A stretch of 64,000 nucleotides of DNA from Phycisphaeraceae bacterium. GTDB taxonomy: Bacteria > Planctomycetota > Phycisphaerae > Phycisphaerales > Phycisphaeraceae. This document shows, in pieces, positions 39,276 to 40,095 of this stretch. The first letter of the stretch is position 1. Every line of letters begins with the position of its first letter. The DNA lies in assembly GCA_963674705.1 (NCBI GenBank), contig OY771506.1:2624001-2688000 (forward strand), in the 5' to 3' direction. Under the pieces are notes generated by a model that made no database searches, had not been told where the DNA came from, and saw nothing but the letters and a program-made list of their open reading frames with translations. A program made the position numbers and the translations under genes.

Positions 39276-39438
39276 TCTTCTTGTGCATATTTATCCGCAA
39301 ACGCTTGTATAAGTATGCTCTATTGGTTAATTTGATTGTTAACAAAAACATCAGATGGCTGATTGGATAGCTGTGTGATTGTTTGGGCGGAGAAGCACCT
39401 CAAATCCATATTGATCCATATCTACAGGAGGGCGGAGA

Positions 39439-40095
39439 ATGGCCAAGGAGAATTTTGAACGTAGCAAGCCGCACGTGAACATCGGGACAGTGTCGCAGAT
39501 CGTCACCGACACGTCGGGACAACTCACGCTAAGCGGTGTCGGAGATGAGTTTGTCGGCAACGATGCGCCGAGCACGAAGCTCTACATCAGCGCGCCGGGT
39601 TCGGGTGACCCGCAGAGTTTCATTGTTGCGTATCCGTTCGATGCGGACTTCACGTTTGTGCCGGACGATGCCGCGTGTTGCAGGGAGATGTCGATGGACT
39701 TTGCGATCGACATGCTGCCGCTGGATGTGACCGGCACAGCCAACCTCGAAGTCACGCTCGCGATCCTTCAAGGTGAAGTGTTTGTCGCGACGGGGCACGG
39801 CGGATCGGTTGTGCCGGGCGCGGGCTGGATGACGGTCAGCGATTCGGGTTTGATCGCGAGCGACTTCTTTGAGGTGGATGGCGGTTCGAGTCACCCGGAC
39901 TTCACGCGCACGTTCCAGTTCGGTTATGCGTTCATGGGCGATTATTCGACGGACGGGTTGAGTGTTGAGCTGAATGTCGACAACATGCACGTGGGCATCA
40001 ACAACGTCCCCGAGCCGGTGACAGGCACGATCGTGCTGGTGCTGATCGGGGGGGCGTTGATGTGCCGGCGTGGTCTGATCCCGACAATGCGATAA
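39439..40095 (+). CDS. PEP-CTERM protein with EF-Tu-like N-terminal 17 residues and no signal peptide
   Basis: Begins MAKENFERSKPHVNIGT and ends VPEP-TM-RR. AGGAGG RBS. In-frame TGA at 39412-39414 excludes an upstream extension. Confidence 0.85.
   Translation: MAKENFERSKPHVNIGTVSQIVTDTSGQLTLSGVGDEFVGNDAPSTKLYISAPGSGDPQSFIVAYPFDADFTFVPDDAACCREMSMDFAIDMLPLDVTGTANLEVTLAILQGEVFVATGHGGSVVPGAGWMTVSDSGLIASDFFEVDGGSSHPDFTRTFQFGYAFMGDYSTDGLSVELNVDNMHVGINNVPEPVTGTIVLVLIGGALMCRRGLIPTMR

Follow-up and report, generated by a model that had tools for sequence, protein, structure and literature searches.

The N-terminal peptide of EF-Tu in place of the signal peptide of a PEP-CTERM-type protein, and its recurrence in unrelated membrane and secreted proteins

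EF-Tu is a well-known leaderless surface protein. Its N-terminal 18 residues make up the epitope elf18, which is read by the receptor EFR, a receptor described as restricted to the Brassicaceae (PMC5593925, PMC11161748). In the parts of these two papers that we cite, EFR is the sole reader of the EF-Tu N-terminal epitope and the elf18 variants tested all come from annotated EF-Tu loci; a heparin-binding motif is also predicted within the N-terminal stretch (PMC5593925). The same sources describe the truncated peptide elf12 as a weak antagonist and report that some csp22 variants antagonise perception, which provides a precedent for decoy epitopes. An enzyme acts on this region as well, since EftM methylates Lys5 of EF-Tu (10.1101/773556). 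Among the PEP-CTERM proteins, a signal peptide is found in 97% of members (Haft et al. 2006, PMC1569441).

Here we analyse a gene in a 64,000-nucleotide stretch of the genome of a Phycisphaeraceae bacterium (the window) that joins an EF-Tu N-terminus to a PEP-CTERM-type C-terminus. It occupies 39439–40095 on the plus strand and encodes 218 residues (Table 1). The original prediction, made from the letters of the window, had begun the reading frame at 39290, which is intergenic; the AGGAGG ribosome binding site and the TGA that it reported are both present. Among the 10 family members for which DNA is available, a purine-rich Shine-Dalgarno-like site precedes the start in all 10, eight have an in-frame stop no more than 12 codons away from the start, and the start codons are ATG (5), GTG (3) and TTG (2). 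A promoter and terminator scan upstream of the gene gave nothing above chance. Across the 11 loci listed, no neighbours are conserved save in the two closest genomes and for a few shared flanks, and this variation means that the gene has no operon partner there. Its codon adaptation falls at the 86th percentile of 391 PEP-like genes, as measured against a reference of only four genes.

Table 1. Features of the tag gene (window positions)
Feature	Position	Strand	Remarks
In-frame TGA	39412-39414	+	Nine codons 5' of the start; excludes an upstream signal peptide in the same frame
Shine-Dalgarno AGGAGG	39426-39431	+	7 nt 5' of the ATG
ATG start	39439	+	
EF-Tu-like tag, codons 1-17	39439-39489	+	Extends to the residue preceding the P-loop; from identity, selection and model
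Body, residues 18-189	39490-40005	+	Jelly roll of CBM-like type (predicted); homologues form a large PEP-CTERM family with signal peptides
PEP-CTERM-type anchor	40006-40095	+	VPEP 190-193, predicted transmembrane helix ~195-209, basic residues, stop
TAA stop	40093-40095	+	

The gene is unusual in its surroundings. Eight frames of the window combine an xPEP motif with a transmembrane segment, and the remaining seven have a signal-peptide-like N-terminus, as had been claimed. Genome-wide, a simple pattern identifies 386 such genes, many of which end in a dockerin-like repeat, and there are three exosortase genes (three PF09721 matches over the cut-off). Seven of the 386 lack a signal peptide according to a heuristic, and by eye the other six resemble fragments or frames with misplaced starts. 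We also scanned the genome for other borrowed peptides; the best 60 of 186 rows and the best 110 of 943 rows were mostly dockerin-like repeats and paralogue motifs, and these rows stop short of the tag’s own score.

Over residues 2–17, the protein and the genome’s own EF-Tu share 12 of 16 residues and 36 of 48 bases. Because the next best match among the approximately 11.08 million six-frame 16-residue windows of the genome reaches only 8/16 (six windows), the likeness is not due to chance, and the proposal of an EF-Tu N-terminus at the start of the reading frame is borne out. The core of the EF-Tu N-terminal motif is encoded at just two sites in the 5.54-Mb genome, the tag gene and tuf. The tag ends just before the P-loop, and the NCBIfam EF-Tu models match residues 1–21/22 only, with E values of 5.5e-4 to 2.9e-3 and scores far under their cut-offs. 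When the gene was aligned with tuf, including its untranslated region, the similarity was confined to a single 35-nt stretch (86%) inside the coding part, and we found no likeness between the untranslated or leader regions.

We then asked how homologues begin, using residues 18–195 alone as a query. This search identified 31 homologous proteins among 146 candidates, at 54–96% identity, and although they were found by their bodies, all 31 carry the tag at their start, with 11 of residues 2–17 invariant. A hydrophobicity heuristic detected a signal peptide in none of the 32 members of the aligned close clade. The gene is present in 8 of 11 genomes of the window’s genus and 10 of 144 of its family, and among 401 genomes sampled across the phylum no further one has it; the named records that contain it belong to Phycisphaerae and one Bythopirellula. 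Contigs from three of four sequencing runs span the tag–body junction, which run X4 does not cover. The first is identical over the whole stretch and may be the source of this DNA, the second is identical over 39413–39710, and the third, from another study, has 63 differences. We conclude that the tag gene is real and no assembly scar, which refutes the recombination or assembly scar that the original prediction had entertained. A chimeric assembly or a dead one-off pseudogene has only the oddity itself in its favor, and with the homologues, the genus distribution, the junction contigs and the purifying selection described below against it, its probability is negligible.

To look for the motif outside GTPases, we searched 185,579 genomes with a DNA pattern for the EF-Tu motif not followed by the P-loop glycine. 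The pattern occurs at 44 loci, a lower bound because tags that run on into the P-loop were excluded. Nine belong to the tag-gene family, three encode Asgard membrane proteins and four encode secreted proteins of other bacteria; of the rest, one is an unclear short frame, one matches outside any gene, and 26 are variant or broken tuf genes or the ends of contigs. In a Pelagibius CARDB protein (L028, 2408–2986, plus strand), the tag directly follows a normal signal peptide, and the predicted cleavage would give the same N-terminus as that of mature EF-Tu. Three of its four homologues have the tag likewise after a signal peptide, degraded in one, and the fourth is without an N-terminus (the family includes P0181, P0183 and P0184, from alphaproteobacteria). 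The tag also lies just after the signal peptide in L049 (2001–2432, plus strand), inside a proline-rich linker in L024 (minus strand, around 2501–2540) and at the C-terminus in L038 (1637–2566, plus strand); these three signal-peptide proteins are unrelated.

The Asgard family of membrane proteins (P0185–P0274; L020, 2486–3733, plus strand; L029; L040) has a bacterial EF-Tu N-terminus in 83 of 90 members. A second EF-Tu-like piece is found in 88 of the 90, and an HExxH motif of the zinc-protease type in 86. In three of the genes the pN of the tag is 0, against 0.177. None of the three Asgard genomes searched has a bacterial-type EF-Tu above the cut-off, and EF-1 alpha, found in two of the three, has a different start. 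The tag of this family probably faces the cytoplasm, as suggested by its placement before the first membrane helix.

Two further groups of matches deserve mention. At six loci from Gracilibacteria, other Patescibacteria and one Dehalococcoidia (L011, L015, L046, L050, L052 and L054), a tuf-like frame stops right after the motif, at the residue that precedes the P-loop glycine; candidate causes are breaks between scaffolds, masking or an assembly artefact common to them. At L031 and L035, tuf stands in its normal operon with the P-loop region lost in frame, and these are probably assembly collapses between tuf copies.

Across eight genes of the tag-gene family (excluding L036, a near-duplicate, and the distant L012; pairs are not independent), the tag has a pN of 0.046 and a pS of 0.58, compared to 0.162 and 0.57 in the body (dN/dS 0.04 versus 0.17). 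Its pN is the lowest of 13 windows, and an equally low value occurs in none of 156 sliding body windows and in 67 of 20,000 random codon sets. In seven of these hosts the corresponding tuf codons have a pS of 0.29, so the tag is free of the constraint that tuf bears on silent sites. We conclude that selection acts on the tag peptide, not on its DNA, and that no other part of the gene is as constrained as the tag. The first of the functions originally proposed, in which the 5' region of tuf was captured as a leader for high expression, is thus unsupported as a reason for retention, given this difference in pS, the lack of likeness in the untranslated region and the GTG or TTG starts of five of the 10 members. 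The second, a selected tag that may serve either export or mimicry, is supported as a class.

The tag is independent of the host’s own tuf. In nine genomes it matches its own host’s tuf at 34.2 of 48 nucleotides and that of other hosts at 34.5, and most hosts’ EF-Tu have Gly/Ala-Val at positions 4–5 where their tags have Glu-Asn/Thr. For a broader comparison we reused 80 tuf loci from a metagenome scan with the family alignment, all of them real tuf matched over the N-terminal 33–61 residues only; the scan has no bearing on the range of the family, and the resulting EF-Tu reference is small and biased towards the query. Among 43 tags, changes occur mostly at positions 5, 7, 9, 13 and 15, which are those that vary across 96 real EF-Tu N-termini; the D7-T9 pair is absent from all 43 tags and occurs in one of the 96 EF-Tus. 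One of 24 tag variants appears letter for letter in the EF-Tu reference set, which is small and query-biased. Two of the 43 tags are degraded (P0037 and P0038).

Repeated recombination with foreign tuf DNA, instead of selection on a function of its own, could also keep the tag EF-Tu-like. On short branches several sites switch at once (positions 5, 7 and 9 in P0024 and P0026), which speaks for such re-templating, as do one Asgard tag variant that equals a real EF-Tu variant and the longer EF-Tu-like stretches in P0034 and P0127. However, the host’s own tuf, the most available donor, is not tracked; Ser9 is encoded by AGC in 8 of 8 tags versus 15 of 42 real tuf genes, a uniformity that fits descent from one capture; and the synonymous divergence of the tag equals that of the body. 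We consider re-templating improbable.

The body descends from proteins of a familiar kind. A profile search of 1.84 billion representatives gave 248 matches at E≤0.001, and of the 132 distant relatives listed, 113 begin with a hydrophobic stretch and many carry a C-terminal xPEP. In a body tree of 47 rows (midpoint root; the partial P0029 and P0041 and short fragments left out), 37 leaderless proteins split from 10 signal-peptide relatives with a support of 100/100. By this phylogeny, the tagged proteins are one clade inside a large family with normal signal peptides. In the alignment the tag lines up with the relatives’ mature N-terminus, and its F6 with a Phe conserved in 86 of 102 relatives, and therefore the signal peptide and the first strand have both been replaced. 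A Pfam search of the protein matched no family; in the ESM Atlas the whole protein fell into unnamed clusters only, and the tag alone had no usable match. A vicinal Cys-Cys pair is present at residues 80–81 (window 39676–39681) in about two thirds of the close clade; PEP-CTERM proteins are described as poor in Cys (PMC1569441).

We modelled the protein with AlphaFold2 from a 138-row alignment and obtained a mean pLDDT of 88.9, with residues 11–20 at 56 and the rest at 75–97. The model is a jelly roll covering residues 2–191 (VIA-align Z 10–11.1, rmsd 3.0–4.5, 145–158 residues aligned; Foldseek E about 1e-5). Residues 2–7 are predicted to be its first strand (block mean pLDDT 77), an assignment that the signal-peptide relatives in the alignment may bias, and residues 8–19 a low-confidence loop. 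A model from a 32-row alignment gave 57 for residues 2–7 and 45 for residues 11–20. Because F6 aligns with the conserved ancestral Phe of the first strand, part of the constraint on the tag may be structural. One clade member, P0127, is a 115-residue mini-protein made of a longer EF-Tu tag, a short spacer and the PEP-CTERM anchor, with most of the jelly roll missing.

The EF-Tu tag is exchanged in a subclade. In L002 (1486–2115, minus strand), L189 and P0036, which belong to the same clade, it is replaced by another borrowed leader, 23/39 identical to the N-terminus of a leaderless protein of the peptidoglycan-binding type whose Pfam scores lie just under the cut-off. This leader is kept over approximately 15, 17 and 28 residues in the three members. 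P0036 is nested among tagged rows in the body tree, and one genome (G483) has a paralogue with each leader type. Both borrowed leaders start with the same three residues. A search for the donor of the alternative leader gave no match in plasmids, phages and four of five genomes, and its 30-mer has no Pfam match; the leader pattern matched 1 of 401 genomes of the phylum. In viral contigs neither this pattern nor that of the tag had any match.

These observations bear on another possible history, in which a 5' deletion was repaired once by a captured tuf 5' end that supplied a start codon and a first strand and was kept for folding or expression only. The modelled strand at residues 2–7, the register of F6, the three residues shared by both leaders and the uniform Ser9 codon, as expected from one capture, all agree with such a repair. 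Nonetheless, it leaves unexplained the invariant residues in the low-confidence loop, a constraint above that of every body window and the recurrence of the tag in tails and linkers of unrelated proteins, and the GTG and TTG starts count against it as well. We give a one-off repair only a slim chance.

The C-terminus retains the features of a sorting signal. An xPEP motif is present in all 36 full-length clade members examined, down to approximately 40% identity, and all 36 have at least one Lys or Arg after the helix modelled at 195–211. PF07589, the Pfam model for PEP-CTERM, does not match the protein at E≤1, and the motif is read from the sequence and its relatives; clade members P0127 and L002 score 20.2 and 14.3 bits against a cut-off of 20.7. 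Lys and Arg make up 2.0% of the body, compared to 10.6% in soluble proteins, and a composition classifier for ectodomains, which is confounded by fold class, returns 0.99 for close members and 0.94 in seven deep members. Compared to its signal-peptide relatives, the anchor is more hydrophobic (2.29 versus 1.91) and the tail less basic (+2.5 versus +4.0), and several deep members have acidic tails.

Composition and xPEP therefore point outward and the anchor and tail changes inward. As summarised in PMC7616256, a segment longer than approximately 100 residues crosses the membrane through SecY and only if a hydrophobic segment precedes it, and proteins whose sole hydrophobic segment is C-terminal (within ~70 residues of the end) are inserted as tail-anchored. 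The sole hydrophobic segment of the tagged protein is near its C-terminus, and because none precedes the domain, the rule predicts a cytoplasmic domain. Loss of the signal peptide would then have left a tail-anchored protein whose tag tethers or decoys an EF-Tu-reading factor at the cytoplasmic side of the membrane. For such a tether this is the default outcome, the altered anchor and tail fit it and the Asgard tag is likewise probably cytoplasmic. Against it stand the xPEP motif in every member and the body that is still ectodomain-like in the deep members, as well as the viral contigs in which the tag pattern has no match. We find a cytoplasmic tether quite unlikely; its candidate factors would be the translation machinery, a modifying enzyme or a phage or competitor effector. 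Weighing these features, we judge that the domain is rather probably displayed on the outer face. If so, its export must be leaderless.

The tag could account for such export if it were read in the cytoplasm by the machinery that releases EF-Tu and other leaderless proteins, replacing the signal peptide. It sits exactly where relatives have their signal peptide and first strand, hydrophobic at the N-terminus in most of the distant ones, while xPEP and an ectodomain-like composition are retained; the alternative leader resembles another leaderless protein; and EF-Tu occurs on bacterial surfaces (PMC5593925, in the part cited). However, proteins that already possess a signal peptide also contain the tag, located either behind the predicted cleavage site or at the C-terminus, and our literature search for an EF-Tu N-terminal export signal found none. 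An export handle of this kind is the main alternative, though an unlikely one.

Our best explanation, offered tentatively and with a shade less than even confidence, is that the tag is a displayed mimic of EF-Tu, bait for a reader that normally recognises the free EF-Tu N-terminus. A selected copy of EF-Tu residues 2–17 stands where relatives carry the signal peptide; in the model, residues 2–7 would fill the slot of the first strand, leaving residues 8–17, which are mostly invariant, as a loop. The protein would reach the outer face, and be handled by exosortase, via a route needing no signal peptide. The tag would occupy or trigger this reader, which might be a receptor, an enzyme or a binding protein and might belong to another organism or to the community. 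We favor a displayed mimic because the invariant part of the tag is modelled as a loop and selected as a peptide, because the general bacterial form of EF-Tu is copied and not that of the host, and because the tag is kept where neither folding nor export explains it, namely after a signal peptide, in a linker and at a C-terminus. The xPEP motifs, the low Lys and Arg content and the classifier result count for the outer face that it requires.

Other observations count against a mimic. The nested subclade does without the EF-Tu tag, two of 43 tags are degraded, and the absence of a hydrophobic segment before the domain goes against the general translocation rule. Since the Asgard tag is probably cytoplasmic, one outside reader would not explain the Asgard family. 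EFR is described as restricted to Brassicaceae and nothing links these hosts to such plants, and of the decoys for EF-Tu-targeting enzymes that the original prediction envisaged, one for EftM is unlikely, as Lys5 is present in only 3 of 43 tags and this protein has Asn. Display and an export handle are not mutually exclusive. A wider proposal is that the tag is a portable peptide, grafted many times by bacteria and Asgard archaea onto membrane or secreted proteins for a widespread non-plant reader, that in the tag-gene family it additionally brings a domain of 190 residues to the cell surface with no signal peptide, and that it is one of a wider class of borrowed signature peptides, with the second EF-Tu piece, the zinc-protease motif and the peptidoglycan-binding leader. 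We regard this proposal as possible, if rather doubtful.

Whichever holds, the tag gene is a handle on how leaderless proteins get to the surface of bacteria, as the signal peptide is replaced by 16 residues of EF-Tu and the sorting signal is kept. It is also a handle on who besides the Brassicaceae reads the EF-Tu N-terminus, for the bacterial form is under strong selection in groups as different as planctomycetes, alphaproteobacteria and Asgard archaea, and this suggests that a reader exists. Our literature search, whose coverage was largely open-access and at the level of abstracts, returned no description of an EF-Tu N-terminal peptide grafted onto unrelated proteins.

Compared to the described systems, the protein resembles elf18 in having the same EF-Tu stretch at what would be a free N-terminus, 12/16 identical to EF-Tu chain 5i4r_C; unlike in elf18, the carrier is an unrelated membrane-anchored protein, the two final residues of the epitope are different and there is no plant link. 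Its likeness to EF-Tu itself (TIGR00485), including the surface moonlighting form, is limited to residues 1–17. It has no P-loop, G domain or domains II–III, and it scores 17.7 bits against a cut-off of 522.4 with a match that ends at residue 17–22; by these measures it is not an EF-Tu. The predicted jelly-roll fold of the body resembles CBM15 (1gny), CBM11 (1v0a), CBM27 (1of3) and CBM22 (4xun), with Z scores of 10.2–10.8 and rmsd of 3.1–4.5 but at 5–12% identity only. This is a likeness of fold that does not imply ligand binding, and many jelly rolls tie with the CBMs, among them complex I factor chains and a turret protein of a virus. With the PEP-CTERM/exosortase (EpsH) substrates, as characterised in the part of PMC1569441 cited, it shares a C-terminal PEP, a membrane helix, basic residues and a body with few basic residues; its genome has exosortase genes, and its nearest relatives are ordinary members with signal peptides. 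It departs from them in the EF-Tu peptide that stands instead of a signal peptide, in the 2–4 Cys of the close clade and in the missing PF07589 match. Judged by sequence, the protein is built like a PEP-CTERM member and descended from them, yet it falls outside the family’s definition by signal peptide and by Pfam. The carrier protein is a variant of the known PEP-CTERM type; for the grafted EF-Tu tag as a recurring design, the literature search gave no counterpart.
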